From: a virus
Virus genome (UHGV): UHGV-0207004
Strand: one strand, 5' to 3'
DNA: 16,978 nucleotides
The notes beneath the pieces are model-generated. The model saw only the letters and a list, made by a program, of their open reading frames with translations, was not told where the DNA came from and did not search any database. Shown here one piece after another: positions 766 through 16,978 of the stretch. A program made the translations under genes and the position numbers. Every line of letters begins with the position of its first letter. The first letter of the stretch is position 1.

Positions 766-771
766 CAAAAA

Positions 772-800: not shown

Positions 801-1010
801 CTGCAACTCCAGCACCTGCGCCCTTAGCTTAGCCCCGCATTCCATATTTTTAACATCAACCAGCAAGTCTTCGTCTGGATCCGCCGAGGCATTCTCAAAG
901 GTGCAAGGCGGTCTATAGACCGACTCTGTTGGCGGCGTCGATGGCACGTTGCTTGATCCGCACGCGCTCATCATCAAAACTGCAATTAGTACGGTCAGGA
1001 CGCGTAACAT
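780..1010 (-). CDS. o-spanin-like outer-membrane lipoprotein (76 aa)
   Basis: ATG 1010-1008 with AAGAGG 9 nt upstream; N-terminal hydrophobic signal ending in lipobox-like LMMSAC; short Pro-rich mature region (PSTPPTESVYRPPC); overlaps out of frame with the 3-prime part of the upstream TM/coiled-coil protein, as in Rz/Rz1-type spanin pairs. Confidence 0.5.
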   Translation of the reverse strand: MLRVLTVLIAVLMMSACGSSNVPSTPPTESVYRPPCTFENASADPDEDLLVDVKNMECGAKLRAQVLELQKIIRGP

Positions 1011-3821: not shown

Positions 3822-3831
3822 GTTCGTTTCC

Positions 3832-5217
3832 TTAGTAGAAGTCTACAGTTGGAACAACGGCGATTGGACGAATCACTGGGAACAGGTGCGCAATTGGATA
3901 GCCCGCGGCATCGTTCATGTGGTCCACCCCAGCGGTTTTATCCGGCTCGCCTTTCTTCAGGTCGTAAACCTGCTGTTCCAGGCATTTCGCTAGTGTAGGG
4001 CATTTATCCAGGTTGACAAAATACTGGCGCACGCCCTTAGCGTTGCACATCATCGTATTCATCGCGATCAATCTGTCTTTCACCGGTGGGTTGACGCTGT
4101 CGTATTCCACCTCGAAGCCCGCGTCTTCCAGTTGCGCGATATCCGACGACGATGCGTTTACGGTCTTACGAGACTTGCCACTGCTGTCCGGGTAAACGAC
4201 AACACGACCGGCAGCGCAATGATCGGGGTAGCGCTCCTCGATCGCCTCAATCATAGCCGGGGTATCAAACAAGTCCACAAATTCATCCACTGCGTGAATC
4301 TCGTCGCGGAACTCCTTATTCTCGGTAGTGCGCTGCCGTCTGACGTACACAACCGCCGCCATTTTCGTGACGTTAAAGTCCATTCCGATAATCAGCGTGT
4401 CATCCGGCTGCACTTCCTCGGTGCTGGCGTTCTCCTCACGGTTAAACATCTTGTAGACTGCGCCAGACGTGAGGTTTACAAACAAGCCGTTAAGATATGC
4501 GTCAATCAGGTTTGCAGGGTACTGGCTTCGCAGCGTGTCGATAAAGTCTGCCGGTAAGTGGTGGTTGTCGGTGGTCTTCGCCCGGATCAACCGTTTTTGG
4601 TTATCCTTCTCCACTTCGAAAATCTGATACATTGCCCGGAAGCCTTCCGGCGTGGACACGATGACAAACTGGCGCACCAGGCCCGCACGCAGACGACCGA
4701 GCAATTTGTGATACGCCGCCATTGCAACGTCTTGCTTCGTGGTGTCGAACTCATCGGCAACAATCCACGCGGCGTTAACACCGATAAGACGCGTGTAGTT
4801 CTCCATTGACTCGCAGATTACGCGGGTCCATTTGCCTTTCACCAGCACGCTATAGATCTTGTCCTGCTTGTTGAACTTCCACCGGAAGCCTGCCTCGTCG
4901 AAAGCCTTCTCCAGCTCCGGGTACATGATTTTCACCAGGAGTGGGATAGTCGGCTCGGTCACAATGCCGTCATGACCTGGGTTCAGTGTCAGAAGCTGGA
5001 TGACCTTACGCGCCGCGACCCATGACTTGCCGCCGCCGAAGCCGGAACACAGGCCGAGGATTTTGGTCTTTGTGTCGCGCAGTAGTTCTACCTGGTGCGG
5101 AAGGCAATCAGGTTGATACAGGCGGACGGCCTGGGCAACGCGCGTTGGGCGCGGTGGTCGGTTGCGCTTTGCAATCGCGCGTTCAAGTGCGCGGTTTTCT
5201 GCCGCATAGTTACGCAT
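3832..5217 (-). CDS. terminase large subunit
   Basis: 461 aa; ATG 5217-5215 overlapping the TerS stop (TAATG); Walker A-like GLCSGFGGGKS, Walker B-like WIVADEFD, C-terminal nuclease-like region (IIGMDFN...); position upstream of portal. Confidence 0.8.
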   Translation of the reverse strand: MRNYAAENRALERAIAKRNRPPRPTRVAQAVRLYQPDCLPHQVELLRDTKTKILGLCSGFGGGKSWVAARKVIQLLTLNPGHDGIVTEPTIPLLVKIMYPELEKAFDEAGFRWKFNKQDKIYSVLVKGKWTRVICESMENYTRLIGVNAAWIVADEFDTTKQDVAMAAYHKLLGRLRAGLVRQFVIVSTPEGFRAMYQIFEVEKDNQKRLIRAKTTDNHHLPADFIDTLRSQYPANLIDAYLNGLFVNLTSGAVYKMFNREENASTEEVQPDDTLIIGMDFNVTKMAAVVYVRRQRTTENKEFRDEIHAVDEFVDLFDTPAMIEAIEERYPDHCAAGRVVVYPDSSGKSRKTVNASSSDIAQLEDAGFEVEYDSVNPPVKDRLIAMNTMMCNAKGVRQYFVNLDKCPTLAKCLEQQVYDLKKGEPDKTAGVDHMNDAAGYPIAHLFPVIRPIAVVPTVDFY

Positions 5218-5768
5218 TACTCACCCTGGCCTTTGCCGATAGGTTCGACAACAACGTCGCCGTTATCATCTTCGTCATCATCCAGCGGAGCATCGTCGCG
5301 GACGCCGTGATTGGCTTTAAGCAGGAACGCAGCGAAGCCCGCCGCGATGGTGATGCCGCCCGCTTCCATCAGGAAAGTTTTCTGCAGCTCCATTGCGTCA
5401 GCCATCGCCTCGGCGAACTCCTCATGTGCGCGCGCCCAGCGGTACAGGCAGGCAATGCCTACACCAATATCCGCAGCAAAGCGACCGAGAGTCGGCATCT
5501 TATGGCGGGGGATGACTTGCGCAGCGCCCTTGTCGGAGTAGTTGATCTGCCAGGCTACGGCATCGGCAAAATAGCGGCGAAGCTGGTCGCAATACACAGT
5601 GCGGTAGTCGGTCGGGCGTCCACATTTGCCGCCTTTACGACGCTTGCCGTATTCGATCTCAGGTCCAAGATTGGTATGTTCGGTTTGCTCGCCTGGTTTA
5701 CGGCGCGGGGTGACTGCCACTCGACCGTCCAGTTTGGCGCGACGGCCCTTAACTCTGATTTCTGCCAT
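5217..5768 (-). CDS. terminase small subunit (183 aa)
   Basis: Track ORF (start 5867) trimmed to ATG 5768-5766, which has an AAGGG SD; basic N-terminus, HTH-like segment (TLGRFAADIGVGIACLYRWARAHEEF), acidic C-terminal tail; stop overlaps the TerL start. Confidence 0.55.
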   Translation of the reverse strand: MAEIRVKGRRAKLDGRVAVTPRRKPGEQTEHTNLGPEIEYGKRRKGGKCGRPTDYRTVYCDQLRRYFADAVAWQINYSDKGAAQVIPRHKMPTLGRFAADIGVGIACLYRWARAHEEFAEAMADAMELQKTFLMEAGGITIAAGFAAFLLKANHGVRDDAPLDDDEDDNGDVVVEPIGKGQGE

Positions 5769-5838
5769 GATATAAGCCCTTTTATGCATATGCGCCGACC
5801 ATCGGCAACATAGGAGACGGCCCTGCCATCTAAGGTGG

Positions 5839-5867
5839 ATTATAACAGGCACAAAAAAGCCCACCAA
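5839..5867 (-). promoter_or_regulatory. candidate sigma70-type promoter for the packaging operon (extended -10)
   Basis: Minus-strand reading: TTGGTG (5867-5862), 17-bp spacer, TGT-TATAAT (-10 at 5844-5839); overlaps the preceding terminator hairpin. Confidence 0.3.
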
Positions 5868-5878
5868 ATCGGCGGGCT
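5851..5878 (-). terminator. rho-independent terminator ending the phosphoesterase module
   Basis: On the minus strand: AGCCCGCC / GGTGGGCT stem (one G-U pair), 5-nt loop, followed by TTTTTTG (complement of 5851-5857); immediately downstream of the stop at 5886. Confidence 0.5.
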
Positions 5879-5885
5879 GGGAGGC

Positions 5886-6098
5886 TTAAACGGCGCGACC
5901 GTAGTATCGGGTTAACATGCTTTCAACTTCGCTTATGGCACCCTCTGTGTAGCGTATTTGAGATAGTATCTCGATCCGCTCACTGATAGACATGCCTATT
6001 GCCGCTGCCGTTCGTTCGAATCGGCGCAAGCCTTCTAGTTGTTTGCGTAGCTCTTTCAGGCGGGTGGCCTGCGTGCTCATGAATACTTGTCTAATCAT
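5886..6098 (-). CDS. hypothetical 70-aa helical protein, translationally coupled to the phosphoesterase gene
   Basis: ATG 6098-6096 overlaps the upstream TGA (ATGA); predicted helical, charged; followed by a terminator. Confidence 0.5.
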   Translation of the reverse strand: MIRQVFMSTQATRLKELRKQLEGLRRFERTAAAIGMSISERIEILSQIRYTEGAISEVESMLTRYYGRAV

Positions 6099-7237
6099 CT
6101 CAACATCTCCGGGCTAATGGTTAGGCGCGCCACTTCGCCGTAGTTGGCGCTATAGGTGATGACGTTAGCACTGCGTCCGGACATCCAACCGCCGCGGCTT
6201 GCGTATGCGTCTTTCGCGGCGAGCGTCCGGTGCTGCTCAACAATCATGTTACGGGATTCTACAATCTTCTGGTGGTGCAAGTGACCAACATGCGCGTAAC
6301 TGTACTCGCTCTCGCCAAATGCTTTCCTGAACTTAGAAATCATTACCGACTCGATGGCGTCAAAGCGTGCTTTGTGACCGTGGTGGAAAAACAGCGTGGT
6401 CTTACCGTGCTGCACCATCTTGTATACGTCCGGTGACGTGTCAACATCGACGCGCGGCTCGTTCTCGTACAGGGTGTTGAACATCTCCGCCAGCCAAATC
6501 ATACCAGACTCGTCATGATTGCCCTGGACGATTAGCAGTTTTACTTTGTGGTGCTTTCGCAGCGCCAGGTCTACTACGTTGCGCACCATGCGAATCATGT
6601 AGCGGACCAACTTCTGGTATCGGGTATCCGCGTCCAGGATATGACCACTGGCTGGAGTGACTGCGTCAAGGCTGTCAAAGTGCGCCATATCGCCGAGGAT
6701 ATTGATGACGGCAGTTCCTGCGTCTGGTGCGCGGGCGAAGGCTTCGACAAACCAGCGGTAAAACAGATCTTCGGCGATTGCCATATCCCAGTCCTCGCCA
6801 GTCTCCTCGCCCCATGCCAGCATTCCCAAGTGGAAGTCTGACACTGTGTACAGGTTGAGTAGGTCAAGTGCCTGGATCGGGACGGGCGGGGCGCTAACTG
6901 GTGCTGCCGGTGTGATTTCGCTGTTCATACCCTCGACAACAGCGAGCATTGCTTCGAGTTGGCGCTCCTTGTCCTGCTCGGTGATAACCCATGACATGAC
7001 CTCTTCGCCATTGCCACGCACCAGGGCGGATACACGCTTGACGCCGAATCCATCGGCAACGCGCTTACGGATCACAGCATCGTTGCCGTGCCCAATGCCT
7101 TTCTTCGACAGCCTGGCTTTGCGCATATAGACATTTCGAAGAGCAATGCCATATTTCTTCGCAATCTCTTTCGATGTAGTGCCAGCTTGCAATTCAGCGA
7201 TCAATTGCTCGTCGGTGATTTTAGTTTGCGGATGCAT
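6095..7237 (-). CDS. N-terminal HTH domain fused to a calcineurin-like metallophosphoesterase (380 aa)
   Basis: ATG 7237-7235. N-terminal HTH-like segment (TSKEIAKKYGIALRNVYMRKARL). Metallophosphoesterase motif set seen in the translation: SDFHLG (D-x-H), ILGDMAHFD (GD), QGNHDE (GNHD/E), HHGH, GHLHH (GH-x-H). Confidence 0.75.
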   Translation of the reverse strand: MHPQTKITDEQLIAELQAGTTSKEIAKKYGIALRNVYMRKARLSKKGIGHGNDAVIRKRVADGFGVKRVSALVRGNGEEVMSWVITEQDKERQLEAMLAVVEGMNSEITPAAPVSAPPVPIQALDLLNLYTVSDFHLGMLAWGEETGEDWDMAIAEDLFYRWFVEAFARAPDAGTAVINILGDMAHFDSLDAVTPASGHILDADTRYQKLVRYMIRMVRNVVDLALRKHHKVKLLIVQGNHDESGMIWLAEMFNTLYENEPRVDVDTSPDVYKMVQHGKTTLFFHHGHKARFDAIESVMISKFRKAFGESEYSYAHVGHLHHQKIVESRNMIVEQHRTLAAKDAYASRGGWMSGRSANVITYSANYGEVARLTISPEMLR

Positions 7238-7286
7238 ATTAATTTAATTCCTGATTGAGAGGACCTAGGACAATATACCACGGTCG

Positions 7287-7367
7287 CTATAGTAATTCGC
7301 AAATAACCATACCGACGAATGCGGCGGCGGACCAGATCGCTAATACCCAAATATCATTGCGTGCCAT
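7287..7367 (-). CDS. putative 26-aa hydrophobic micro-protein (MARNDIWVLAIWSAAAFVGMVICELL)
   Basis: ATG 7367-7365 preceded by GGAAGGAG at ~9 nt; single predicted TM helix; sits between the TTGGTTGCA promoter region and the phosphoesterase gene; below the ORF-track size cut-off, so hand-translated. Confidence 0.25.
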   Translation of the reverse strand: MARNDIWVLAIWSAAAFVGMVICELL

Positions 7368-7390
7368 AGTGTGTTACTCCTTCCCGTTGA

Positions 7391-7428
7391 TTGGTTGCAG
7401 TATGGCCTCTATGTTGGTTGCAAGTCAA
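7391..7428 (-). promoter_or_regulatory. promoter/operator region with two TTGGTTGCA 9-mers
   Basis: Perfect TTGGTTGCA at 7391-7399 and 7414-7422; on the minus strand TTGACT (-35, complement of 7423-7428) and a weak CATACT -10 at 18-bp spacing; directly after a terminator and before the micro-ORF and phosphoesterase gene. Confidence 0.4.
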
Positions 7429-7430
7429 GC

Positions 7431-7457
7431 AATAAAAAGCCCGGATAATTCCGGGCT
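7431..7457 (-). terminator. rho-independent terminator ending the lysis unit
   Basis: AGCCCGGA (7438-7445) / TCCGGGCT (7450-7457) 8-bp stem, 4-nt loop; on the minus strand followed by TTTTATT (complement of 7431-7437); 7 nt after the stop at 7464. Confidence 0.6.
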
Positions 7458-7463
7458 TCATGT

Positions 7464-7634
7464 TTACGCCTCCGGTTCTGCCGGTGGTTCCGGTGCCGCT
7501 GGTTCTGGCAGCTTCGCATCAAAAACACCAGCATGACTGATAGTGTCGGCGATAATGGCGCGTGCGCCAGGGTCTTCGGTTTTAGCCAGCGCGGCGAGCG
7601 CGTCGGCGTTATGATCAAGAATGCTTTTTAACAT
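7464..7634 (-). CDS. small protein with Pro-Glu-rich C-terminal tail (56 aa)
   Basis: Track ORF trimmed to ATG 7634-7632, preceded by GAGGAG at 7 nt; sequence MLKSILDHNADALAALAKTEDPGARAIIADTISHAGVFDAKLPEPAAPEPPAEPEA; no TM segment or lipobox, so not a spanin. Confidence 0.5.
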   Translation of the reverse strand: MLKSILDHNADALAALAKTEDPGARAIIADTISHAGVFDAKLPEPAAPEPPAEPEA

Positions 7635-7650
7635 ACTGTGTCTCCTCGTA

Positions 7651-8142
7651 TTACACTGCGTTACGTCCGATTTTCTCGGCAACGTCCCACTGCTTACCAT
7701 CGAATAGTGCCTGCCGACCGATTGCACGGCGGACAAGCCCCTTGAGCACTACCCCACCCTGCTTGCGGAATTGCGGCAGTGTAGCACGTACCTTCGCCCA
7801 GTCACCCAGGCGGACCGCATCATCGAAGTCACCGGCAATGTTGTCCGGCGTGATCGGGCCAGGACCGGTATTGATAACCAGATCCACCAGCGCGTCGAAT
7901 TGCGCCTGATTAATGCTCGGGTGTGCGTACTTGTTCACACAACTTTCGGCATACTCCACATCTCGCTTGAGTAGCTCCAGCGCTTCCGCACGGGTAATGC
8001 TCCGCGGCGGATTTGTGCCGGTGTGTCCATAGCCCCAGGTGTACAGGCCGCGGGCCTGCTCTTTCTTAGTCGCGAAATACGGCACTGGGCTGAATTGCTC
8101 CCATGCTGCCGTGAATCTTAGACCGTTGTCACTGAATCGCAT
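7651..8142 (-). CDS. endolysin, GH24 (T4/P22-lysozyme-like) muramidase
   Basis: 163 aa; ATG 8142-8140 with GGGG SD; from memory of P22 gp19-type lysozymes the translation shares SxNG...GxGHTG...NQxQFDAL...FNxG-type blocks; position after holin-like genes. Confidence 0.8.
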   Translation of the reverse strand: MRFSDNGLRFTAAWEQFSPVPYFATKKEQARGLYTWGYGHTGTNPPRSITRAEALELLKRDVEYAESCVNKYAHPSINQAQFDALVDLVINTGPGPITPDNIAGDFDDAVRLGDWAKVRATLPQFRKQGGVVLKGLVRRAIGRQALFDGKQWDVAEKIGRNAV

Positions 8143-8374
8143 GTTTTACCCCATTCAAAACAGCATTACGCAGTGTGCGCAATGCAAACAGCCAGATTAA
8201 CGCGGTCCAGGTGGCGTCAGATACGTCTCCCGTTTGCAACAGACCGACAATACAGGTCATTGCCGTTAGCAGATACAACACCCGACCGAAGAAGCCATCC
8301 TGAACGGATGGCGCGTACACGTTAAACAGGGACGATGCCCCGATAATCACAAACAACAGGACGGTGATAATCAT
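8129..8374 (-). CDS. holin/antiholin-like small membrane protein (81 aa)
   Basis: Track ORF (171 aa) trimmed to ATG 8374-8372, which overlaps the upstream TGA (ATGA) and has a GGGGGG SD; three hydrophobic segments; 3-prime end overlaps the endolysin start. Confidence 0.5.
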   Translation of the reverse strand: MIITVLLFVIIGASSLFNVYAPSVQDGFFGRVLYLLTAMTCIVGLLQTGDVSDATWTALIWLFALRTLRNAVLNGVKHAIQ

Positions 8375-8661
8375 TTTGCGCCCCCCGGAAGGCGGAACGA
8401 CGCAATCGTCTCCCTGATCCGGGCGGCGATTGGCATCCAGAAGATGGCTGTTACGAAGCCCAATCCGGCGACAGTTCGCTCGCCAGATAGGCCAGCCCAC
8501 TCGGCAATCGCTGGCGCACCGAAAATGGCACACAAGAAGCCGACCACGATGTATAACACGAAGTTTAATGGCCCTTTCGTGGCCTCGCCATGAATGCGAG
8601 CGCCAACGAATCCGCCTGCAAGGCACGCTAGGGCGAATAACCATTCGTTCAGCTTTTCCAT
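8371..8661 (-). CDS. holin-like membrane protein (96 aa, three predicted TM segments)
   Basis: ATG 8661-8659; hydrophobic segments WLFALACLAGGFVGARI, FVLYIVVGFLCAIFGAPAIA, GLGFVTAIFWMPIAA; charged C-terminus; first gene of the holin-holin-endolysin block. Confidence 0.55.
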   Translation of the reverse strand: MEKLNEWLFALACLAGGFVGARIHGEATKGPLNFVLYIVVGFLCAIFGAPAIAEWAGLSGERTVAGLGFVTAIFWMPIAARIRETIASFRLPGGAK

Positions 8662-8695
8662 AAAAAAGTCCCAGTAAGTTTTAGCTCACTGGGAC
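8662..8695 (-). terminator. hairpin plus T6 immediately abutting the holin start codon (tR-prime-like terminator or translational control element)
   Basis: GTCCCAGT (8668-8675) / ACTGGGAC (8688-8695) perfect 8-bp stem, 12-nt loop; on the minus strand followed by TTTTTT (complement of 8662-8667) and then directly ATG 8661. Confidence 0.5.
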
Positions 8696-8713
8696 TATAT
8701 CACGCTTGCATAG

Positions 8714-9001
8714 TTAATCGAAAATGGACCACTTACCGACGCCTTTCCATTCCCACCCTTCCGATCGGACGGCCTCGAACATACGGCCCCCGATCATATC
8801 CCGATACCACAGCCACCACATGCGCAGCTTGGTTGGGTGTTCGGTAATGCCGCGGCGCTTGTATATCTGGAACGTCATCCGGGTAATGCTGGCAGCTTCC
8901 ACGGCAGGCCATACCAGGAATACCCAAATAACTAACAACACTGCCGCGATAAGGCATAGTCCGCAGGCCAGCCCAAACCAATATATCATTTCGTGTAACA
9001 T
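8714..9001 (-). CDS. small membrane protein (95 aa), function unknown
   Basis: ATG 9001-8999 with AAGGGG SD at 8 nt; N-terminal TM helix, Trp-rich C-terminal half; caveat: two other frames are also open here, so coding status is uncertain. Confidence 0.4.
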   Translation of the reverse strand: MLHEMIYWFGLACGLCLIAAVLLVIWVFLVWPAVEAASITRMTFQIYKRRGITEHPTKLRMWWLWYRDMIGGRMFEAVRSEGWEWKGVGKWSIFD

Positions 9002-9122
9002 CGTATTGCCCCTTCTGGTTGTCCGATGTGGCGCGCCCAGGCACGCGCCACGAAGTAATTGCGGAACACTCGCCCGCCTATCTCAAAGCGGTTGTGCATG
9101 AGTATATCGCGGATGGTCGCAC

Positions 9123-9695
9123 TCATTTCAGAATCACCGAGCGCGGGTCGATGACGGTCATGTTGCCGTCCGGTTCGACACGGATGAATCCAACGCCATA
9201 CTCTTTAGCGTGGCGCTGTGCATTCGTCACGGCGTCAAAGCGATTGATGATTTCACGCGTTGCCTGGCGGATCGGCTCCATCACTTTGCTCGCGTCGTAG
9301 GCTGCATAGGCGGTCTGTGACTTGCGGAACTCAACGCGCTCATGTGGCTGGCGGATGCGCAGGCAGTATTTACGCCCCACTCGCTCGTAGTTGACCAGCC
9401 CGAAGTAAGCCACGCTCTTAACCATGTTGCCGGTACCGCCCTCCTTGCGGGTCTGCATACGAATGCAATAAAAACCAACATTCTCCACAATCCACAGCTG
9501 CCCGTCGCGAATATCCCGCAGCACATCGCCGCGCTCAATATCGTGGGTGAGTACGTCGAAGTTTTCCGACAGCTTGTCTTTCTTCGCCCACCACACCCGA
9601 CTACCTGCCGCGTTTTGCAAGCGGACGTAGGAATCCAGGGTCTGGATCGGCTTCAGGATGCATCCATCCCATTTACGGCGGAATAGTAATTTCAT
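9123..9695 (-). CDS. hypothetical protein (190 aa)
   Basis: ATG 9695-9693 overlapping the upstream TGA (ATGA); no motif recognised; last gene before the late leader and holin genes. Confidence 0.55.
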   Translation of the reverse strand: MKLLFRRKWDGCILKPIQTLDSYVRLQNAAGSRVWWAKKDKLSENFDVLTHDIERGDVLRDIRDGQLWIVENVGFYCIRMQTRKEGGTGNMVKSVAYFGLVNYERVGRKYCLRIRQPHERVEFRKSQTAYAAYDASKVMEPIRQATREIINRFDAVTNAQRHAKEYGVGFIRVEPDGNMTVIDPRSVILK

Positions 9696-9961
9696 TTGCT
9701 CAGTCTCCAGTGTTTGCCTGCCCGCTCAATGGCAGGCTTTCGGCGTAATGTAATACGGATCCCCATTGGTTGCAAGGAAGTCCGCACCCTGAAATCATGT
9801 TGTGCTGCGAACTGGTGCAGGTAGCGAGTCTGCGTAAGTGGCTTCGCATCATCGCGATAGCTCCAGTACACAGAATCGCCCTCAATCGCATTCTGCGCCC
9901 ATATTCGTATGCAATGCAGGGGAATGCCCCATGAAAGCTGTTTAGCTCGCCTCCGGCTCAT
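9692..9961 (-). CDS. hypothetical basic protein (89 aa)
   Basis: ATG 9961-9959 with AAGGGG SD; Arg/Trp-rich; translationally coupled to the downstream gene; contains an internal TTGGTTGCA at 9766-9774. Confidence 0.45.
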   Translation of the reverse strand: MSRRRAKQLSWGIPLHCIRIWAQNAIEGDSVYWSYRDDAKPLTQTRYLHQFAAQHDFRVRTSLQPMGIRITLRRKPAIERAGKHWRLSK

Positions 9962-9970
9962 TTTGGCCCC

Positions 9971-10276
9971 TTATTTCGCAAGCTGGGCGAATAGTTCGCG
10001 CTGGGCTTTAATCCGGGCGACGTTTGTCACTGCCGTCTCCCCGATCCCGAAGCGATAAGCCAGGCGCTCACGGGAGAATGCCATCGCATATTCGCAGATT
10101 GCCACGCGCAGCGGCTCCAGTTCGTCCAGGCTGGCAAACATATCGTCGAACGCGTTCATGATCGCCTGCTGGGTCAGGATGACTACCTCGCGCGCTTCGT
10201 CTGCGTTGCCGTTTAGTGCCTTCGCTTCGTCCAGCTTTGCCACGGCCAGGGTGTAATTCCAGATTAGTGCTTTCAT
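9971..10276 (-). CDS. hypothetical protein with C-terminal HTH-like segment (101 aa); candidate small regulator
   Basis: ATG 10276-10274 overlapping the upstream TGA; C-terminal RLAYRFGIGETAVTNVARIKAQRE resembles a helix-turn-helix. Confidence 0.5.
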   Translation of the reverse strand: MKALIWNYTLAVAKLDEAKALNGNADEAREVVILTQQAIMNAFDDMFASLDELEPLRVAICEYAMAFSRERLAYRFGIGETAVTNVARIKAQRELFAQLAK

Positions 10277-10470
10277 CGTTCAGTCCTCTTCGTGATGGTT
10301 ACGCTATCCAGGAATTGCAGCAAGGCCTCTTGCGCCTTTACACGCAATCCGGCGTAGTGGCGCGATTTCTTAATGTCGCCGACCATGTACGCTGCGCGTG
10401 CTTGCAAATCAGCTTTGTTCTCGGCCTCAATCAGTTCCAGCAGTTCGTCTACCAGGTCTTCGTGGTCCAT
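10273..10470 (-). CDS. hypothetical acidic helical protein (65 aa)
   Basis: ATG 10470-10468 with GAGGA SD at ~10 nt; first gene downstream of the promoter and repeat region. Confidence 0.5.
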   Translation of the reverse strand: MDHEDLVDELLELIEAENKADLQARAAYMVGDIKKSRHYAGLRVKAQEALLQFLDSVTITKRTER

Positions 10471-10485
10471 TGTTCAATCCTCATG

Positions 10486-10531
10486 TTGGTGTGCAACCAA
10501 TATATCAGTGTGCCCGGCCGGATGCAACCAA
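10486..10531 (-). promoter_or_regulatory. sigma70-like promoter overlapped by two TTGGTTGCA sites
   Basis: Minus-strand reading: -35 TTGCAT (complement of 10522-10527), 17-bp spacer, -10 TATATT (complement of 10499-10504); 9-mer copies at 10523-10531 and 10492-10500 (complement); the 21-mer TATATTGGTTGCACACCAACA is shared with 16579-16599. Confidence 0.45.
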
Positions 10532-10680
10532 TATTAATCACGCGCATGAAAAAGTTGATCGCTATCTGCTGCAACTGCAAACTGCATTTTTCACTCTCCA
10601 TTCTGCAACTCGCATTGGTTGCCGAGTTCATCGACGACCGCAATTTGCATCATGTTGCCGTGGATTATGCAATCCTGGAT

Positions 10681-11000
10681 TTTATGCAGTCTCAGACGAG
10701 GGGGGTGCCAGACCCCCCGTCTAGTCTGAAAGACTGGGGTGCTGTCCCGCTGTCCCGATCGGCTAAAACCCGCGGCAGCACTGGCGGGGACGGGGTGCTG
10801 TCCCGCTTTGTCCCGCCTCAATTTTGTCCCGCTTTTGTCCCGTTTGTTTTATGCATGAAAACTGAATAGGTATGCACTTTTCAGAGGGGTGCCAGATCGG
10901 GACGTCCCGCCTGTCCCGCTTTTAGTTTATGCAATAAAAGTAAATAGGTATGCAGTTTTTGAGGGGCGGGACAAAACGGGACGTCCCGCTTGTCCCGCTT
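10681..11000. repeat. ORF-free iteron array: three imperfect ~75-bp tandem modules carrying GTCCCGC heptamers (~10 direct, 3-4 inverted copies)
   Basis: GTCCCG(C) at 10744, 10752, 10800, 10810, 10826, 10837, 10904, 10913, 10983, 10992 (pairs 8-11 bp apart); inverted CGGGAC at 10898, 10967, 10977; modules start TTTATGCA at 10681, 10849, 10926 and share GAGGGG(TGCCAGA) and AATAGGTATGCA blocks; no ORF of 60 aa or more on either strand. Confidence 0.7.
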
Positions 11001-11002
11001 CA

Positions 11003-11679
11003 TTATGCGGGGTTTTGTTGCGCCATTTCATCGAGCGCGATTCGTTCCATTAGCTTGATATCTTTAAACGCGCGCTGCTCGTTTTCGATACCGTGCATCT
11101 TAAATAACCATTCCAGCACGCCATAGTCGATGCCGTATGCGCCACCGAATCCGGTGCGCCATTGCGTAGAGCAATCTGTGAAGACTGCGACTACCTTCGC
11201 GTTGTCGGGCCATAGCGCAACAGGCGGGCAAACGTCTTCAGGTGCCGCGCCCCATAAACTCGCGGCTAAGTCCTCTGATGGTGGCGGCGGACCGTAAAAT
11301 CGCCTCGCCGCCTCAATTAGTTTTTTTCACGCAGTCCCATCAGTTCGAGATAGTACGAGGTGTGGAACACGCCAAACGCGCGCGGATAGTTTACCACCAG
11401 GCGGCGAACGTTCTCCGCGTTAAATTCGTCCGGCAGGTTCCAGCCTTCAGCGACGTGCATGATGGCCTCAACCATAACGTTAAAGCCATCCGGGTCGTTG
11501 TCGTCATATTCTGATAGCTTGCGTTCCGTTTCCTGCATGGTCTGCGAAAATTCGTCAATCGGGCGGTGGCGGACGGTAAACGTCATCTTGCCTGGTTCGT
11601 TCTCACCAGGGCGCGGGATCTCAATCGGCAGCTTAAAGGTCGGCTTAGGGTCAAGTGTGAAGAGTGGTGCTTTAGCCAT
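11003..11679 (-). CDS. tail assembly chaperone GT fusion (predicted -1 programmed frameshift product)
   Basis: Slippery run GAAAAAAAC (complement of 11320-11328) at the last codons of G; the -1 frame has a stop 2 codons upstream of the slip site, then stays open for ~105 codons to TAA 11005-11003 with no plausible start codon or SD of its own. Confidence 0.45.
11317..11679 (-). CDS. tail assembly chaperone G (120 aa)
   Basis: Track ORF (TTG 11694) trimmed to ATG 11679-11677 with GGAG SD; small acidic protein directly downstream of the major tail protein gene and ending in a slippery A-run. Confidence 0.55.
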   Translation of the reverse strand: MAKAPLFTLDPKPTFKLPIEIPRPGENEPGKMTFTVRHRPIDEFSQTMQETERKLSEYDDNDPDGFNVMVEAIMHVAEGWNLPDEFNAENVRRLVVNYPRAFGVFHTSYYLELMGLREKN

Positions 11680-11692
11680 TGTAATATTCTCC

Positions 11693-11718
11693 AATAAAAA
11701 AGGGGCCGTGCTGGCCCC
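11693..11718 (-). terminator. rho-independent terminator after the major tail protein gene
   Basis: GGGGCC (11702-11707) / GGCCCC (11713-11718) stem, 5-nt loop; on the minus strand followed by TTTTTTATT (complement of 11693-11701). Confidence 0.6.
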
Positions 11719-11748
11719 ATATTATCACTCGCTATTTAAGCGACCAAA

Positions 11749-12474
11749 TCAGGCGAGTGCCTCGACCAGGTCCTTACGGTAGATGACCATATCAGACTGC
11801 ATGGTCAGAGTGGATTGTACCGTTTCCACGTTGTTTACTTCAGCGGACGGAATCTTCTGGAAAGATACCTTAGCCGGGTAAATACGAATTTCACCTTTGC
11901 CGCTTGCTGCCGCTGGGTTAGTGAACTTAATCACAGTGGTTTTCTGTGTGTCGTCCAGGTCTTCCAGGATTGGGCGGATCGGGTCTTCTTCGTCGTGGGT
12001 GAAGGTGTAAGTCTGGACCAACGGGTTTTTCGTGGTGTTCAGACTGATCGCGGTGTTCACCTGCAACGGCTGGAAGGTAGTCGTCTGCTGGTCACCACCA
12101 GAAACAGCAACGTTAGTGATAAACGGGAAGTCGATAAAGTTAGCCACCTTAACCACTTCGCCAGGTGTACCCGCTGCAAAAGCCCCCGCCGGATATTTGG
12201 TCACATCCGAGGTGTCGAAGCGCGCGAGCGTGACGTCGTTGGTAGCCACTTTACCCACGATGAACGCGCGGTTCTGCGCGCGGACCCACGGAGATTTAGT
12301 GAACATTACCACGTCGCCAACTTTCAGACCGTGAGACGCCGCGCAGGTGATTACGCAACCAGTGGTAAGGTTGGAGATCGACGCGGTGGCGTTGGAAGCT
12401 GCCGTAACAGCGATGCCGCTGCCCAGTACGGACCCAATCTGGACGCTGGACCCGTTAGGAAGTTGATAACCCAT
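11749..12474 (-). CDS. major tail (tube) protein
   Basis: 241 aa; ATG 12474-12472 with AGGAG SD; Gly/Ser/Thr/Val-rich beta-type composition; followed by a terminator and a chaperone gene with a frameshift, the canonical siphovirus arrangement. Confidence 0.55.
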   Translation of the reverse strand: MGYQLPNGSSVQIGSVLGSGIAVTAASNATASISNLTTGCVITCAASHGLKVGDVVMFTKSPWVRAQNRAFIVGKVATNDVTLARFDTSDVTKYPAGAFAAGTPGEVVKVANFIDFPFITNVAVSGGDQQTTTFQPLQVNTAISLNTTKNPLVQTYTFTHDEEDPIRPILEDLDDTQKTTVIKFTNPAAASGKGEIRIYPAKVSFQKIPSAEVNNVETVQSTLTMQSDMVIYRKDLVEALA

Positions 12475-12534
12475 AATGAAGCTCCTGTTTAGATATACGG
12501 ATTAATGATACAGCACGCGCAGAATTGCGCCAAA

Positions 12535-12957
12535 TCAGGCGCAACAGCTATACATGATTGATACCACGATGCGGGCGCGGTCAACATCCTCGACCACAGA
12601 ACTGGTATATGGCGCGTCCTGAAGCTGGAAAGCCGCGCCATCGATCTTGACGCCATGCCATTTGTCAGACGTCGCGATGGCGTCCGCCAGTTCGCTCGCG
12701 TACTGTGTGCCCGTGCCCGCAGGGAACACAACGGCAACCTGGTAAACGCCTGCATAGATCCGGCCTTTCTGCTGAAGGCCAGCAAACTGGGTCGGGGCCG
12801 GTAGCAGGTACGGCTCCAGGTAGACGCCATTACCGTTTGCGTGGTCGCCCTTCACGTTCTCCCAGTTAACCTGGATCGGACGCTGGTTAGTGCTCAGGCT
12901 AACCGCCAATTCTTCTACTACGCTGTTAAGCGCCTTGCGGATTAGAGTATTGCTCAT
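12535..12957 (-). CDS. head-tail joining / tail terminator-like protein (140 aa)
   Basis: ATG 12957-12955 overlapping the upstream stop; call is from position between head-tail connector genes and the major tail protein only. Confidence 0.4.
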   Translation of the reverse strand: MSNTLIRKALNSVVEELAVSLSTNQRPIQVNWENVKGDHANGNGVYLEPYLLPAPTQFAGLQQKGRIYAGVYQVAVVFPAGTGTQYASELADAIATSDKWHGVKIDGAAFQLQDAPYTSSVVEDVDRARIVVSIMYSCCA

Positions 12958-13550
12958 TATTTCACCTTAGAATTGATTTCTGCCGCCACAACGCGAACAA
13001 TCCCCGCTGGCGCTTGTTTACTCCAGCCATACTCCAGTCGCTGCGCATACGGCACATTATTAGTAAACCAGATCGATCCGTATTCGCCAGAATCGTAATG
13101 CGCCAGCACGTCACGCCCTGCGGCTAATGTTGCCGTTCCAGCCTTGTCCACTCTGTCGATAGCGCCGACAGCCGGACGGTCGAAAGTCACCTGCCAGTTT
13201 CCCCGGAAGCGTCCGCCGGTGTAATTCTTCGCGGCCCAGCCACGCTGGCGAAATGTGACGTTGCCGTCTTTAGTCTTAAACGAGACGAGCACACTTGCGT
13301 GTTTCTTCTGCCCGCGCTTCAGTTTGCCGCCATTCTTGCGGCGCTGTGCGGCGTTCACCTTGTTCGCGTGCTGGCGGGCCATCGCGAACGCCCTGTTAAT
13401 CTTCCACCGGCGGGGGTCGCCCACCGGGGAAATCTCAATCAGGCGTCCGAGTATTTGCATACCGGTCGCCCGCACCGCCTTGTCGTTATTCTCCTTCGTC
13501 TTTTCCACCCAGGTGGCGATGGTGGCGGCGAACGAGTAGACCTCAGCCAC
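12957..13550 (-). CDS. head-tail connector family protein (197 aa), possibly HK97 gp10-like
   Basis: GTG 13550-13548 with AAGGGG SD at ~5 nt; synteny between capsid and tail genes; family assignment is from recollection, not a search. Confidence 0.4.
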   Translation of the reverse strand: MAEVYSFAATIATWVEKTKENNDKAVRATGMQILGRLIEISPVGDPRRWKINRAFAMARQHANKVNAAQRRKNGGKLKRGQKKHASVLVSFKTKDGNVTFRQRGWAAKNYTGGRFRGNWQVTFDRPAVGAIDRVDKAGTATLAAGRDVLAHYDSGEYGSIWFTNNVPYAQRLEYGWSKQAPAGIVRVVAAEINSKVK

Positions 13551-13551
13551 A

Positions 13552-13905
13552 TTAGCCCCTTAGCTGTAATTGAAACAGCATGGTAGTTCCCGCCGGTTGC
13601 AGTGGATTTGGATTGATAACACGGTAGTCCGTGCTATTCAGGTTGACCAGATCGCCTACCTGCACTTGCTCCGATGCCTGGCATAAGAACTTAACGTCAC
13701 CGGCAATGATACGAGTCCCGTCGATCTCGCTGGGCTTGTACTCCTCGCGAAGACCGATGACATCAAACGACGTTGGCGGGATAACCACTTCTTCGCCGCC
13801 TACGCGGTCAACAGACCCCGGACGCGTCACCTTAACGGTCATGCCGTATTTTTTAATCAGCGGATTTACTTTCCGCTTCAAGCCTGCGTAGTTAAAGCCC
13901 GCCAT
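13552..13905 (-). CDS. head closure / head-tail adaptor-like protein (117 aa)
   Basis: Track start GTG 13914 abuts the SD; ATG 13905-13903 has GGAGGG at ~9 nt and is preferred; synteny. Confidence 0.45.
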   Translation of the reverse strand: MAGFNYAGLKRKVNPLIKKYGMTVKVTRPGSVDRVGGEEVVIPPTSFDVIGLREEYKPSEIDGTRIIAGDVKFLCQASEQVQVGDLVNLNSTDYRVINPNPLQPAGTTMLFQLQLRG

Positions 13906-13906
13906 T

Positions 13907-14002
13907 TTATTCACCCTCCGGCGCTGGTTCTGGTTCTGGTTCTGGTTCTGGTGGCTGTTTGGTATTTGCGGCGATAACAGCCGCGAGTAATGCAGGATTC
14001 AT
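13907..14002 (-). CDS. 31-aa mini-protein with (Pro-Glu)4 repeat (MNPALLAAVIAANTKQPPEPEPEPEPAPEGE)
   Basis: ATG 14002-14000 one nt after the upstream TAA, AGGGG SD at ~5 nt; stop TAA 13909-13907 one nt before the next ATG; fills an otherwise unexplained 97-nt gap; resembles the C-terminus of the 56-aa protein at 7464-7634. Confidence 0.3.
   Translation of the reverse strand: MNPALLAAVIAANTKQPPEPEPEPEPAPEGE
13925..13953. repeat. hexanucleotide tandem repeat (TGGTTC) x4 plus a partial copy
   Basis: TGGTTC at 13925, 13931, 13937, 13943, then TGGTG; encodes the PEPEPEPE stretch on the minus strand. Confidence 0.85.
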
Positions 14003-14003
14003 A

Positions 14004-14504
14004 TTAGCCCCTGTACACGTCAAAGTTACCGGCGGCGTTGCCGTCTGTGTTCACCCAGTAGCCCAGCAGGCCATCCCACCACGGGAAAGACACACCACTA
14101 CCAATCGACGCAGCGTCATACTCCATCGTGATCGGGCCTACCGTTTCGCGGATAGTCTCCTTTCCATCGCCGATCGGAGAAATATCAACATCGTCAGCCA
14201 CCAGCATTGCCAGCCGGTAAACGGCTTGTTCAACGGCAACGGGGATTGATGCGAAGTCTACAATCTGCCCAGCAGGTACTACTGCCAAATCTTCGGTAAG
14301 CGTGTTCAGTACCGGCTTACCGTCTGATGGGTAGTTGATGCGGGGCCATGCGTCAATTCCGGTCGGGTCCGCCGGTTCGCCGATCCAGGCGATGCCGTTG
14401 AGGAAATCATTAACTATGGTAAGGTGTCGCGTTGCATCGCCCTGCGTAATTTCAACGCCTCGCGCCGCGGCATAAACAACGAAGGTTTGCGGGTCGCCAT
14501 ACAT
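14004..14504 (-). CDS. head-tail connector / head completion candidate (166 aa)
   Basis: ATG 14504-14502 with AGGAG SD at 8 nt; first gene after the capsid terminator; synteny only. Confidence 0.45.
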   Translation of the reverse strand: MYGDPQTFVVYAAARGVEITQGDATRHLTIVNDFLNGIAWIGEPADPTGIDAWPRINYPSDGKPVLNTLTEDLAVVPAGQIVDFASIPVAVEQAVYRLAMLVADDVDISPIGDGKETIRETVGPITMEYDAASIGSGVSFPWWDGLLGYWVNTDGNAAGNFDVYRG

Positions 14505-14517
14505 TTTATTTGCTCCT

Positions 14518-14543
14518 ATAAAAAAGGCGGGCTTATGCCCGCC
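14518..14543 (-). terminator. rho-independent terminator after the major capsid gene
   Basis: GGCGGGC (14526-14532) / GCCCGCC (14537-14543) 7-bp stem, 4-nt loop; on the minus strand followed by TTTTTT (complement of 14520-14525). Confidence 0.6.
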
Positions 14544-14562
14544 CCTTTGGGATTTGCGCCGA

Positions 14563-15663
14563 TCAGGACGCTGTGGTCGCAGTCAGCGTAACCAGTACGC
14601 CAGCCGTTTCCTTGATGTTACGGGTCGGCACTTCCTGCGCGGCCTGGGTCTTACGACGGCCTTTAGTATCGCCATCACCCACCGCGCCAACATCCTGAAC
14701 GGTTGCCGGTGCGTTGTCTACTTGGCCCTGGTCCAGTTCCCAGTTTGCGGAAGTGGTAATATCGCTCAGTTTGAACGAGCGTACACCTTCGATCGGGGTG
14801 CGAGCGGACGCCTTCAGACGGTAGCCTTTAACAGCCACGTTGAAGTCGAACTCACCCTGCCACCAGCGTTCGATGTTCTCGTTACCGCCTTTTTCCTGCG
14901 CCAGCATATCAAGGCCGTTGGTGGTAACTGCAACCGCGCCAGGGACCAGACCCAGCATTTTACCCGCGCCCATAGCATCGGCAGCGGCATCGGAGATAAT
15001 GAAACGACGACCCAGGCCGTCACCCATTACCTGCAGATCGCCGATCGCAAATACCTGCTCGGCAGACGGGAGCGCCTGGTACGCAATGAAGTTTGCCCAG
15101 GTAACGCCGTCCATAAACCAGGATTTAATCAAAGACGCCTGATCGCCGAACTTAGAAGCCGCCAGCGGGAAGTCTGCCAGGGTCGGGAAGGTACGACCGC
15201 CAACACCGTCAACACGCGCCGGTTGGGTGTATGCTGCCGCTGGGTTGCTCTCGATCGCCGCTTTACTTGCGCCGATACCGGCCTTCAGGTAATGCAGCAT
15301 AATCGCTTGAGTAGCCTGTGCCGCAATCTCAGCCGCAACGCTGTTAACGTTGGTTTCGATCTTAGCCATCATAGCCTTAGTGATTGCCACCGGACCCACT
15401 TTCGCGGAGAGGTTGACCGAGTTGGTCAGCATACGCGCCAGCACTTTAGCGGTCGCCGGAGTACCGACAGGGGCATATGCGTTACGGTCAGTAACGAGGT
15501 TGGCGATCAAGCCTACGGACATTTTTTCTACAACGTCCTTCAGCACTTCACCTGTACCGAGAACAACAGCGCCGTTCGCGGCAGCGTTGAACACGTTCAG
15601 GTTGTCGGGGATCATTTGCGTAACCGCGGTAACGAGTTTACGCTGGAACACTGTTAAAGACAT
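14563..15663 (-). CDS. major capsid protein
   Basis: 366 aa; ATG 15663-15661 with AAGGA SD; immediately downstream of the scaffold gene and followed by a strong terminator; Ala/Gly/Val-rich; call from size, position and expression signals. Confidence 0.7.
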   Translation of the reverse strand: MSLTVFQRKLVTAVTQMIPDNLNVFNAAANGAVVLGTGEVLKDVVEKMSVGLIANLVTDRNAYAPVGTPATAKVLARMLTNSVNLSAKVGPVAITKAMMAKIETNVNSVAAEIAAQATQAIMLHYLKAGIGASKAAIESNPAAAYTQPARVDGVGGRTFPTLADFPLAASKFGDQASLIKSWFMDGVTWANFIAYQALPSAEQVFAIGDLQVMGDGLGRRFIISDAAADAMGAGKMLGLVPGAVAVTTNGLDMLAQEKGGNENIERWWQGEFDFNVAVKGYRLKASARTPIEGVRSFKLSDITTSANWELDQGQVDNAPATVQDVGAVGDGDTKGRRKTQAAQEVPTRNIKETAGVLVTLTATTAS

Positions 15664-15730
15664 ATCGAAATCCTTTGAGTTGTGAGCATTCGCCCAGTGA
15701 CGTTAATGTTACCTTAGATTTACGCGCTCG

Positions 15731-15756
15731 CAAAATCGCCCGCTTTCGCGGGCGAT
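15731..15756 (-). terminator. attenuator-like hairpin between scaffold and capsid genes
   Basis: ATCGCCCGC (15735-15743) / GCGGGCGAT (15748-15756) perfect 9-bp stem, 4-nt loop; on the minus strand followed by only TTTTG (complement of 15731-15734). Confidence 0.35.
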
Positions 15757-15760
15757 CTGC

Positions 15761-16465
15761 TTACTCGTCGTCGCCCATTTTAGCGATGATTTCACCGGCC
15801 TGTTTTGTCAGGTCTGTAATACCAAAGCTATGGCCCATCGAGATTTTCGGCTTCGCATCTTCAATAACCTGTGTCGGTTTGCTCGGAGCGCCACCTGCTG
15901 GCGTGCCTGCTAGTACGGATGCAAAATCGGCGTTACTACGGAACTCTTTTTCAAGCTCTTCCATAGTAAGGGCGGACGGTTTGCCATCCTTCAACACCCG
16001 CAATTTCAAGCTGCCGTCTTCGCCGTCTTCCAGCGCGAGTCGGTCCATTACGTGGCGTTGCATGATGCCCGCATTCTTACCGAACAGCTTCGACGCCAGG
16101 TCTTTGGCAGCGCTGCCGATGGTTAGATCGTGGATCTGCTTGCGGTAGGCTTCGATTTTACCCGATGTGTCTGCTTCGTGTTTTGCAAACTTATCCTTCC
16201 AGGATTTATCGATCGCTTCGAGGTCGCCATTTTTGCGCGCGGCGGCTTCCTCTTTCTCTTTCGCAAGGCGCTCGGCTTCGGCGCGGCGTTCGGCTTCTGC
16301 TTTCTTCTCGCTCACCAGCTTTGCGTTGTTGTCTTTCAGACCCTTGATTTCCGCCTGCACTTCGTCAGCGGTCATAAATGTTGACTTATACCCGTCGCCA
16401 TCGGCAACAAAAAGCGCCTTCATACCTTCTGGCAACGCGTCGTATTCTGCTTTGGTAAGTTTCAT
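15761..16465 (-). CDS. scaffolding protein (234 aa)
   Basis: Track ORF (start 16699) trimmed to ATG 16465-16463 with AGGGGGA SD; Lys/Glu/Ala-rich coiled-coil-like central region (KKAEAERRAEAERLAKEKEEAAARK); directly upstream of the capsid gene. Confidence 0.6.
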   Translation of the reverse strand: MKLTKAEYDALPEGMKALFVADGDGYKSTFMTADEVQAEIKGLKDNNAKLVSEKKAEAERRAEAERLAKEKEEAAARKNGDLEAIDKSWKDKFAKHEADTSGKIEAYRKQIHDLTIGSAAKDLASKLFGKNAGIMQRHVMDRLALEDGEDGSLKLRVLKDGKPSALTMEELEKEFRSNADFASVLAGTPAGGAPSKPTQVIEDAKPKISMGHSFGITDLTKQAGEIIAKMGDDE

Positions 16466-16555
16466 GCTATCCCCCTGGGATTGTGGCAGAGCGGGCCACC
16501 CGCTCGACTTCACGCCTCTAATATTATCAGCGATAAAAATAATCGCAAAATTCGC

Positions 16556-16599
16556 TTGCAATCCTGGTGTTGGTTGCATATATTGGTTGCACACCAACA
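16556..16599 (+). promoter_or_regulatory. plus-strand sigma70-like promoter overlapped by two TTGGTTGCA sites, in a divergent intergenic region
   Basis: -35 TTGCAA (16556-16561), 17-bp spacer, -10 TATATT (16579-16584); 9-mer copies at 16570-16578 and 16583-16591; the 21-mer 16579-16599 is the reverse complement of 10484-10504; a GAGCGGG/CCCGCTC hairpin at 16489-16505 lies in the scaffold gene leader. Confidence 0.45.
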
Positions 16600-16619
16600 G
16601 AGATATGAAGGAAAACAAG

Positions 16620-16934
16620 ATGACTAACATGACCGTAGCAACTCCAGTAGACGTAGCAATGACCCGTTTCAATAAAGCTACCGTAGCTAAAACCTTCACC
16701 TTTCATGCTATGCGTAACGCCGAAGCGCTGAATCTGTGCCAGAGCATGAATGCTACTGAAGCAGCGAAGGCCGCAATCAATTCCGCATCCTTCGATAACC
16801 CGGCTTGCGGTCTGGTTCCGGCATCTTTCATCAAATCCCTGGTAGAAGCCTTTAACGATTTCATGTGCGTCGATGCCGTTGAAGCCGTATGCGCTCGCTT
16901 AACTTCCACCGGTGGCAACATCAAGTTTAACTAA
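16620..16934 (+). CDS. hypothetical protein (104 aa), divergent from the structural operon
   Basis: ATG 16620 with AAGGA SD at 7 nt (in-frame ATG 16605 lacks an SD); ends TAA 16932-16934; followed by a GGGGC-GAAA-GCCCC hairpin near the window edge. Confidence 0.5.
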   Translation: MTNMTVATPVDVAMTRFNKATVAKTFTFHAMRNAEALNLCQSMNATEAAKAAINSASFDNPACGLVPASFIKSLVEAFNDFMCVDAVEAVCARLTSTGGNIKFN

Positions 16935-16978
16935 ACTAAACCAAACGGGGCGAAAGCCCCAACCACGAGGACACAAAA

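Follow-up and report, generated by a model that had tools for sequence, protein, structure and literature searches.

A 31-codon open reading frame (ORF) fills the gap between two head-tail genes in the virus genome UHGV-0207004, and its product ends in an acidic Pro-Glu tail encoded on a tandem repeat of six nucleotides. Is this frame a gene, is its product related to that of a 56-aa ORF with a similar tail in the same DNA, and what could so small a protein do for the phage? We analysed these questions in the whole stretch of 16,978 nucleotides, here called the window, and in related phage records and metagenomic contigs. The window belongs to a Dhillonvirus, an HK578-like siphophage of E. coli, and 115-159 phage records match it at 80-95% identity. 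The natural gene order around the ORF is scaffold, major capsid protein (MCP), head-tail adaptor Ad1, mini-ORF, head closure protein Hc1, a 197-aa neck/tail-completion protein, terminator and tube (Table 1). The window presents a rotated version of the Dhillonvirus order, since positions 10682-16978 align to positions 17013-10708 of phage HH3 and positions 1-10681 to HH3 10707-1. Window position 10681 corresponds to the left end of the HH3 genome and is joined to sequence that complete genomes place 17 kb away. Many of the Logan contigs with these genes measure 15.4-17 kb, so the junction 10681/10682 appears to be an artefact of assembly or windowing and not a biological feature. As a separate observation, all nine copies of GTCCCGC in the window (eight on the plus strand and one on the minus strand) lie within 260 bp at 10740-11000, with shorter GTCCCG variants nearby. 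The cluster follows closely on the tail assembly chaperone genes, contains a 79-bp tandem repeat (x1.9, 10848-11000), adjoins a GC-rich hairpin at about 10695-10720 and looks like a candidate iteron or operator array.

On the minus strand, the mini-gene reads ATG AAT CCT ... GGT GAA TAA from 14002 to 13907 and encodes MNPALLAAVIAANTKQPPEPEPEPEPAPEGE*. Its ATG (14000-14002) is separated by a single base from the TAA of Ad1 (14004-14006), and its own TAA (13907-13909) by a single base from the ATG of Hc1 (13903-13905), just as the preliminary description of this DNA had reported for a 31-codon ORF placed between two head-tail genes. The automatic ORF list gave Hc1 an upstream GTG start; the annotation of the relatives uses the ATG, which was adopted here. 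The Shine-Dalgarno-like AGGGG of the mini-gene is built from the last two codons of Ad1 (Arg-Gly) and is kept among the relatives as AGGGG, CGGGGG or AGAGG with a spacing of 5-8 nt. The penultimate Ad1 codon is AGG, AGA or CGG and is followed by GGN, both in the window (14007-14012, minus strand) and in the relatives. AGG and AGA are rare arginine codons in E. coli. Since the last two Ad1 codons make up the Shine-Dalgarno site of the mini-gene, their choice looks driven by the downstream start. At the other end, the relatives carry GGAGG or GGGGAG at the place equivalent to the Hc1 Shine-Dalgarno sequence, and most of them show a 14-nt overlap between the mini-gene and Hc1. The usual C-terminal ...GGL of the mini-protein results from this overlap, with the Hc1 Shine-Dalgarno sequence lying in the last codons. 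The mini-protein of the window is five codons shorter at its C-terminus than those of its closest protein relatives (P0029 and P0034, ending in ...EGEENGGL), and a single GAA to TAA change would explain the early stop. No promoter-like sites were found around the mini-gene, terminator-like matches there were weak and at background level only, and an Rfam scan of the window gave no match. The mini-gene is a genuine gene: it has an ATG and a Shine-Dalgarno site of its own and is coupled to Ad1 on its upstream side and to Hc1 on its downstream side.

Table 1. Coordinates of the features discussed in the text (window positions).
Feature	Position	Strand	Remarks
Sigma-70-like promoter, TTGACT, 18 nt, CATACT	7428-7399	-	Directly after the terminator
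Intrinsic terminator closing the lysis/decoration operon	7436..7459	-	10-bp stem and T run; annotated in WFI
56-aa capsid decoration protein, phrog_11068	7464..7634	-	Homolog of PDB 9zys chain H, gp64
197-aa 'tail completion/Neck1' protein	12957-13550	-	
Head closure/stopper Hc1, 117 aa	13552..13905	-	phrog_161, E=7e-30; downstream neighbour
Mini-gene (31 codons + stop)	13907..14002	-	Member of phrog_11158 / HK578_010
Codons 16-31, QPPEPEPEPEPAPEGE, acidic Pro-Glu tail	13910..13957	-	No predicted secondary structure; length hypervariable in relatives
Shine-Dalgarno GGAGGG of Hc1	13914..13919	-	Inside the last codons of the mini-gene; constrains C-terminal ...EGE
Perfect hexanucleotide tandem repeat, CCAGAA on the coding strand, x4.8	13924..13952		Tandem Repeats Finder: period 6, 100% matches
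Codons 1-15, MNPALLAAVIAANTK, conserved N-terminal helix, putative anchor	13958..14002	-	
Head-tail adaptor Ad1, 166 aa	14004..14504	-	phrog_477, E=1.3e-35; Pfam PF20557; upstream neighbour
Shine-Dalgarno-like AGGGG of the mini-gene	14008..14012	-	5 nt 5' of the ATG

The mini-protein matched phrog_11158, a family of unknown function (E=3.3e-15, residues 1-28), and its location between Ad1 and Hc1 is also that of the phrog_11158 / HK578_010 family. The gene is already annotated as hypothetical in HK578 (HK578_010), SSL-2009a, YD-2008.s, HH3 and other phages. It was present at the same position in 41 out of 41 related loci retrieved (25 distinct DNA sequences), so that no locus was seen in which the flanking genes persist and the ORF is missing. 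Codons 1-15 showed a pooled pN/pS of 0.16, with 12 of the 23 variable sites falling on third codon positions, a substitution pattern indicating that this part of the gene is under purifying selection. The early proposal that the 31 codons form a gene was therefore right. A profile search recovered at least 36 clusters at E<=2.4e-7, all of 34-44 aa and all from Dhillonvirus-like phages; for PE-rich members, this search scored the best 8000 word-sharing candidates, and forms of 56, 72 and 147 aa were missed by it. An exhaustive HMM search of 1.84 billion representatives returned only three clusters at 50% identity, indicating that the family is restricted to this genus. The invariant columns of the mini-protein are M1, N2, P3, A4, A8, A11 and A12. 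The alanines A4, A8 and A11/A12 are spaced i, i+4 and i+7/8 and would thus occupy one face of a helix. AlphaFold2, when given the family alignment, predicted a helix at residues 3-13, with a pLDDT of about 90 over residues 1-10, and no structure after it.

The tail behaves quite differently from the helix. The preliminary description had placed 4.8 copies of the hexanucleotide at 13925-13953; the repeat and its copy number stand, and the coordinates were one base off (13924-13952 by Tandem Repeats Finder). The pattern CCNGARCCNGARCC was found only at the mini-gene tail in the window (three overlapping matches, 0.01 expected). Most relatives spell the PE stretch with mixed codons (heterogeneous, for instance, in loci L020, L011 and L009), so the repeat of the window looks like a recent slippage expansion. 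Different units have expanded independently: the window has (CCAGAA)4, bov22_1 repeats a unit of 18 nt, Teewinot has five copies of a 36-nt unit and SM_A2 a long (GAGCCA)n, the loci with the other expanded units being L004, L003 and L002. Mini-proteins without additional domains measured 25, 29, 31, 34-44 (mode 38), 56 and 72 aa, with tails of 10 to 57 residues. For this length survey, 25 distinct DNA sequences, 37 protein clusters and four contigs were used, because a 391-nt megablast query was too insensitive to cover all 115 records.

Length differences were seen even between loci that are otherwise very close. Four contigs encoding an Ad1 protein identical to that of the window had Ad1-Hc1 gaps of 80, 80, 92 and 98 nt, and the gaps of the loci with identical Ad1 differed by 6 to 18 nt, in multiples of six. 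One of these contigs matched the window at 100% identity for 3.2 kb and had the same 31-aa ORF, while the remaining ones encoded MNPALLAAIIAAKTKQPPEPAPEPEPKGE and MNPALLAAIIAAKTKQPPEPAPKGE, so that the lengths across the set were 25, 29 and 31 aa. The preliminary description had held that a 6-bp repeat would give an in-frame, length-variable tail and had proposed comparing the copy number across relatives; the comparison bore this out, with in-frame differences even where Ad1 is identical and not one frame-breaking copy number (25 out of 25 distinct sequences were in frame). Since the repeat units are multiples of three (6, 18 and 36 nt), slippage alters the length of the product and cannot switch the gene off. 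A tail can be as short as 10 residues, indicating that a length-dependent tail function is probably absent. A possible EF-P stalling motif (PPE) was rejected, as the relatives do not conserve it. As to annotation, the contigs with the 25-31-codon versions (L046-L049) had no gene call at all; ORFs of this size fall below the thresholds of gene callers and are missed. In the SM_A2 (L002, PP920552.1) and Teewinot (L003, OK499993.1) records, the long PE-repeat ORF is unannotated and a spurious ORF on the opposite strand is called over the repeat instead.

Some alleles of the mini-gene carry a folded domain as well. In the SM_A2 allele (147 aa), the shared 15 N-terminal residues are followed by a short Pro-rich link, then by an Ig-like domain and finally by a long PE run. 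The domain matched Pfam Ig_3 with 28.7 bits and the PHROG 'Hoc-like head decoration' with E=8.5e-12. The SM_A2 record also shows a tandem duplication of about 100 bp over the end of the PE repeat and the first 27 nt of Hc1, which is probably a misassembly; because of this apparent duplication, an independent Ig-bearing case was sought. It was found in the Logan contig SRR10023924_189, where a 122-aa allele (P0052), flanked by an Ad1 of 166 aa and an Hc1 of 117 aa, matched Pfam Ig_3 with 33.2 bits, above the cut-off of 30. Both alleles were 67% identical without gaps. Their Ig parts differed with a pN of 0.22 against a pS of 0.76, the latter being saturated, and the pS was 0.43 in the flanking Ad1 and 0.34 in Hc1. 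The low pN relative to pS, together with a pS above that of both neighbours, indicates that the Ig-bearing allele is old and under purifying selection.

By tblastn, the Ig domain shared about 40% identity with its counterparts in T5-like decoration proteins (pb10 type) and in the HK97-type major tail protein. The PHROG and Pfam matches of the long allele were limited to its Ig part (residues 16-112), and the anchor matched only phrog_11158. AlphaFold2 without an alignment gave a pLDDT of 48 for P0052, and the Ig identity of the long alleles is based on Pfam, PHROGs and tblastn. Ig-bearing alleles are rare, as they were found in one of the 115 phage records and in one metagenomic contig; a viral contig search for the Ig allele gave no match. 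The 31-aa mini-protein of the window has no Ig domain and, in this respect, lacks the exposed Ig that characterises T5 pb10 and Hoc-like proteins. Phage Ig-like domains reportedly sit on structural proteins of the virion.

A parallel case was found in the same window. The product of the 56-aa ORF, whose function had been given as unknown along with that of the mini-protein, matched chain H of PDB 9zys, 'Decoration protein gp64', over residues 1-52 of both sequences (E=1.8e-25, 90.6 bits), and phrog_11068 with E=4.8e-33. It thus belongs to the gp64 family, and for this protein the earlier statement is outdated. Its helical N-domain of 42 aa is followed by a P/E stub tail that ends in ...DAKLPEPAAPEPPAEPEA, and its gene is the last of a holin-holin-endolysin-decoration operon. 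A strong intrinsic terminator and a promoter-like sequence (7399-7459, minus strand) separate this lysis/decoration operon from the phosphoesterase-terminase-head genes. In EE09, WFI and PTXU06, the homolog measures 137 aa and is composed of the same 42-residue N-part followed by a Big_2 domain (40.5 bits versus 22.8). The 137-aa form of EE09 (CDS40) has been detected by mass spectrometry in the lysate and in infected cells (PMC10673088). Three metagenomic variants (P0043, P0046 and P0048) bore truncated Big_2 remnants and look like decaying Big_2 forms, which suggests repeated loss of the domain. These observations on the 137-aa form and the variants concern 7464-7634 (minus strand) of the window and loci L022, L023 and L024. 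Two further peculiarities of the records were noted, an internal tandem duplication of the homolog's N-terminal domain in SM_A8 and the label 'major tail protein' given to the homolog in HH3 and HK1.

Particle structures and proteomics offer a view on whether the mini-protein is part of the virion. The MCP of the window matched PDB 9zys_A, 'Major capsid protein gp09', with 766 bits, and Hc1 matched 10lj_A, 'Stopper protein gp12', with 226 bits. For a near-identical phage, the PDB contains the capsid with gp64 (9zys), the portal gp03 (10ec) and the stopper gp12, terminator gp14 and tube gp15 (10lj). In the numbering of these entries, Ad1 would be gp10, the mini-protein gp11 and the 197-aa protein gp13. 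The mini-protein had no PDB match at E<=10 except for a PE low-complexity hit; likewise, Ad1 and the 197-aa protein had no PDB match, although 10ec, 9zys and 10lj come from a near-identical phage. The absence of a matching chain indicates that the mini-protein does not belong to the ordered, modelled portion of either the icosahedral shell or the region from stopper to tube; it might instead sit at the portal-adaptor level or at a symmetry-mismatched site, or act outside the virion. No publication on these structures came up in a literature search that covered 9zys, gp64/gp09, decoration proteins of Dhillonvirus and the peptide sequences; a paper on Sf11 that was retrieved deals with an unrelated phage. 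Proteomics of an EE09 lysate listed 24 detected phage proteins; Ad1 (166 aa, CDS27) gave one peptide, and the 35-aa homolog of the mini-protein, taken to be CDS26 from its locus tag EE09_26, and Hc1 were both unlisted (PMC10673088).

What, then, might the mini-protein do? With moderate confidence, we propose that it is a minimal accessory protein of the virion, of the decoration type, attached either to the capsid or at, or close to, the head-tail junction; its anchoring role, its presence in the virion and its attachment site are what we infer. The only conserved and selected element, residues 3-13, would be a short helix whose alanine face is invariant; most likely, it would pack into a groove or onto a helix of a partner protein and so serve as the anchor. 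The acidic Pro-Glu tail is free in length and grows and shrinks in frame by slippage of 6-, 18- or 36-nt units. In some lineages, a folded Ig-like domain follows the putative anchor, and the phage of the window would carry the domain-less form. The C-terminus tolerates from 10 to about 130 residues, including a folded domain, and must therefore face open solvent. Given that phage Ig-like domains are, as far as known, on virion proteins, a virion accessory protein is the most likely role. The Ig-bearing alleles and the precedent of gp64, which in the same genome alternates between a short stub and an Ig-bearing form, favour this minimal accessory protein, while a helix of 11 residues would be very small as an anchor, which speaks against it, as do the lack of a matching PDB chain, the missing entry for the homolog in the EE09 table and the rarity of Ig-bearing alleles. 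A bolder version of the proposal, to which we assign a rather low probability, is that the Ala-faced helix of 11-13 residues would be a sufficient virion-anchoring tag, a plug-in socket, with gp64 as a second, independent socket of this kind. Repeats coding for Pro-Glu at the flanks of the cargo site might then let lineages insert, swap or delete display modules (the Ig-like domain or an acidic tail, whatever its length) through slippage and recombination.

Both the mini-protein and the 56-aa protein have been described as paralogs, and an unrecognisably diverged copy of gp64 that binds the capsid in a similar way through an AIIA-type helix would account for the shared order of parts, that is, an Ala/Ile helix, a P/E tail and an optional Ig domain. 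The string GCTGGTTCTGG, reported as common to both ORFs, indeed has exactly two occurrences in the window (7498 and 13923), and the DNA block shared by both genes amounts to 12 nt, CCAGAACCAGCG, encoding P-E-P-A. When both tails were recoded with the codon usage of the phage, however, a shared 11-mer appeared in 16-24% of the trials and a 12-mer in about 4%, so this block is not strong evidence of common origin. A local alignment of the full-length proteins scored slightly above shuffled sequences (p=0.03), but BLASTP between them gave E=69, and hhalign of the two family alignments gave a probability of 2.3% with seven tail columns aligned. In Smith-Waterman comparisons with shuffles, neither the N-terminal parts (p=0.56) nor the tails (p=0.57, a match of composition only) stood out. 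PHROGs keep both proteins in separate families (phrog_11158 and phrog_11068), the Ig families of their long alleles differ (Ig_3 in the mini-gene and Big_2 in the 56-aa ORF), and 9zys contains gp64 and no chain matching the mini-protein. Paralogy is thus unsupported, and we regard a diverged gp64 copy as improbable. What remains of the earlier comparison is the common architecture of helix and P/E tail, and both proteins also exist elsewhere as Ig-bearing long alleles; at the level of sequence, the likeness is one of architecture and not of ancestry, with the reservation that very short sequences never exclude remote homology.

A minimal virion accessory protein also has to be weighed against roles that involve no lasting place in the particle. 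While the head is being completed, the helix could bind briefly to Ad1, Hc1 or the portal and, for instance, time or chaperone the docking of adaptor and stopper; the acidic tail would confer solubility, and the protein would be absent from the finished particle. Such an assembly factor would fit a gene located between Ad1 and Hc1 with translational coupling to either neighbour, a protein without a chain in the PDB entries of the near-identical phage and unlisted in the EE09 lysate, and a tail whose length is irrelevant down to 10 aa. A chaperone would nevertheless have no obvious use for an Ig domain, and two old, selected alleles carry one whose closest counterparts are those of virion decoration and tail-tube proteins, which makes this role unlikely in our view. 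Far less probable is that the ORF only relays ribosomes from Ad1 to Hc1 and encodes a functionless peptide. The 1-nt stop/start spacing on both sides in the window, the 14-nt Hc1 overlap in most relatives and an Hc1 Shine-Dalgarno sequence within the last codons would suit a relay, but it would need neither a conserved helix nor some 100 nt, and it leaves the protein-level selection on codons 1-15 (pN/pS 0.16, third positions free) and the purifying selection on Ig-bearing alleles without a reason. We also considered that the mini-ORF could be a C-terminal extension of Ad1, produced by +1 frameshifting or re-coding at the Ad1 stop. It lies in the +1 frame of Ad1, this frame is open for seven codons upstream of the ATG, a G-rich, Shine-Dalgarno-like run just 5' of the Ad1 stop resembles the prfB shift site, and Ig domains are appended likewise to some phage structural proteins. 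On the other hand, the ATG is invariant and the Shine-Dalgarno site conserved in all relatives, with the 5-8 nt spacing of normal initiation, and the spacer, of 1 nt in most relatives, is 2 nt in the most divergent one (L019), so the frame relation to Ad1 is not conserved as a programmed frameshift would demand; an extension of Ad1 is very hard to credit. A frameshift fusion to Hc1 was rejected, as the Hc1 frame is +1 in the window, bov22_1 and Teewinot and -1 in YD-2008.s.

Part of this picture is already known, since databases list the mini-ORF as hypothetical and the structure of the similar-looking decoration protein has been solved. The extent and manner of the tail variation and the Ig-bearing alleles at this locus appear undescribed in the searchable literature, and so does the parallel alternation between stub and Ig forms in two unrelated tiny proteins of one genus. 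If the helix anchors to the particle, it would be a natural display tag of about 13 residues whose C-terminus accepts extensions as small as 10 residues or as large as a folded domain, and such a tag could be useful for phage display and phage engineering. If the socket reading holds, no smaller natural anchor for phage display would be known. The minimal accessory protein would also be a second one for a phage whose capsid, portal and neck-tail parts are in the PDB. Should the mini-protein turn out to be a transient assembly factor, it would be of ordinary interest.

Several known systems resemble the mini-protein in one aspect or another. Simple-sequence contingency loci share with it a perfect short coding repeat whose copy number differs between very close relatives; unlike them, the mini-gene has units of 6, 18 and 36 nt, and its length changes without on/off switching, so it is not phase-variable in that sense. 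The EP/KP region of TonB and the EP repeats of trypanosome procyclin, as rigid or extended spacers, share with the mini-protein tail an alternation of proline and glutamate that short tandem repeats encode, a likeness of composition only and not of homology. The only Pfam signal of the tail was a sub-threshold match to the procyclin repeat. The Pro-Glu tract can shrink to PEPAP, however, which makes a length-dependent spacer role unlikely. The SM_A2 and P0052 alleles resemble proteins of the T5 pb10 and T4 Hoc type in having an N-terminal helical part followed by an Ig-like domain, T5 pb10 being composed of an alpha-helical anchor domain and a solvent-exposed Ig-like domain (PMC5292684). In contrast to pb10 and Hoc, the anchor of the mini-protein is a single helix of about 11 residues and not a folded domain, and it is not homologous to their anchors. 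A further parallel is gp64 (9zys chain H). Its gene stands at the end of the lysis operon and the mini-gene in the neck module, its anchor measures 42 residues versus about 13, no sequence homology between both proteins is detectable, and its capsid location is established by a solved structure, whereas no PDB chain matches the mini-protein. Even so, gp64 is likewise tiny (55-56 aa), comes from the same genus, has a helical N-part and a short Pro/Glu tail and, like the mini-protein, exists both as a stub and as a long Ig-like form, which carries Big_2 in EE09 and WFI.
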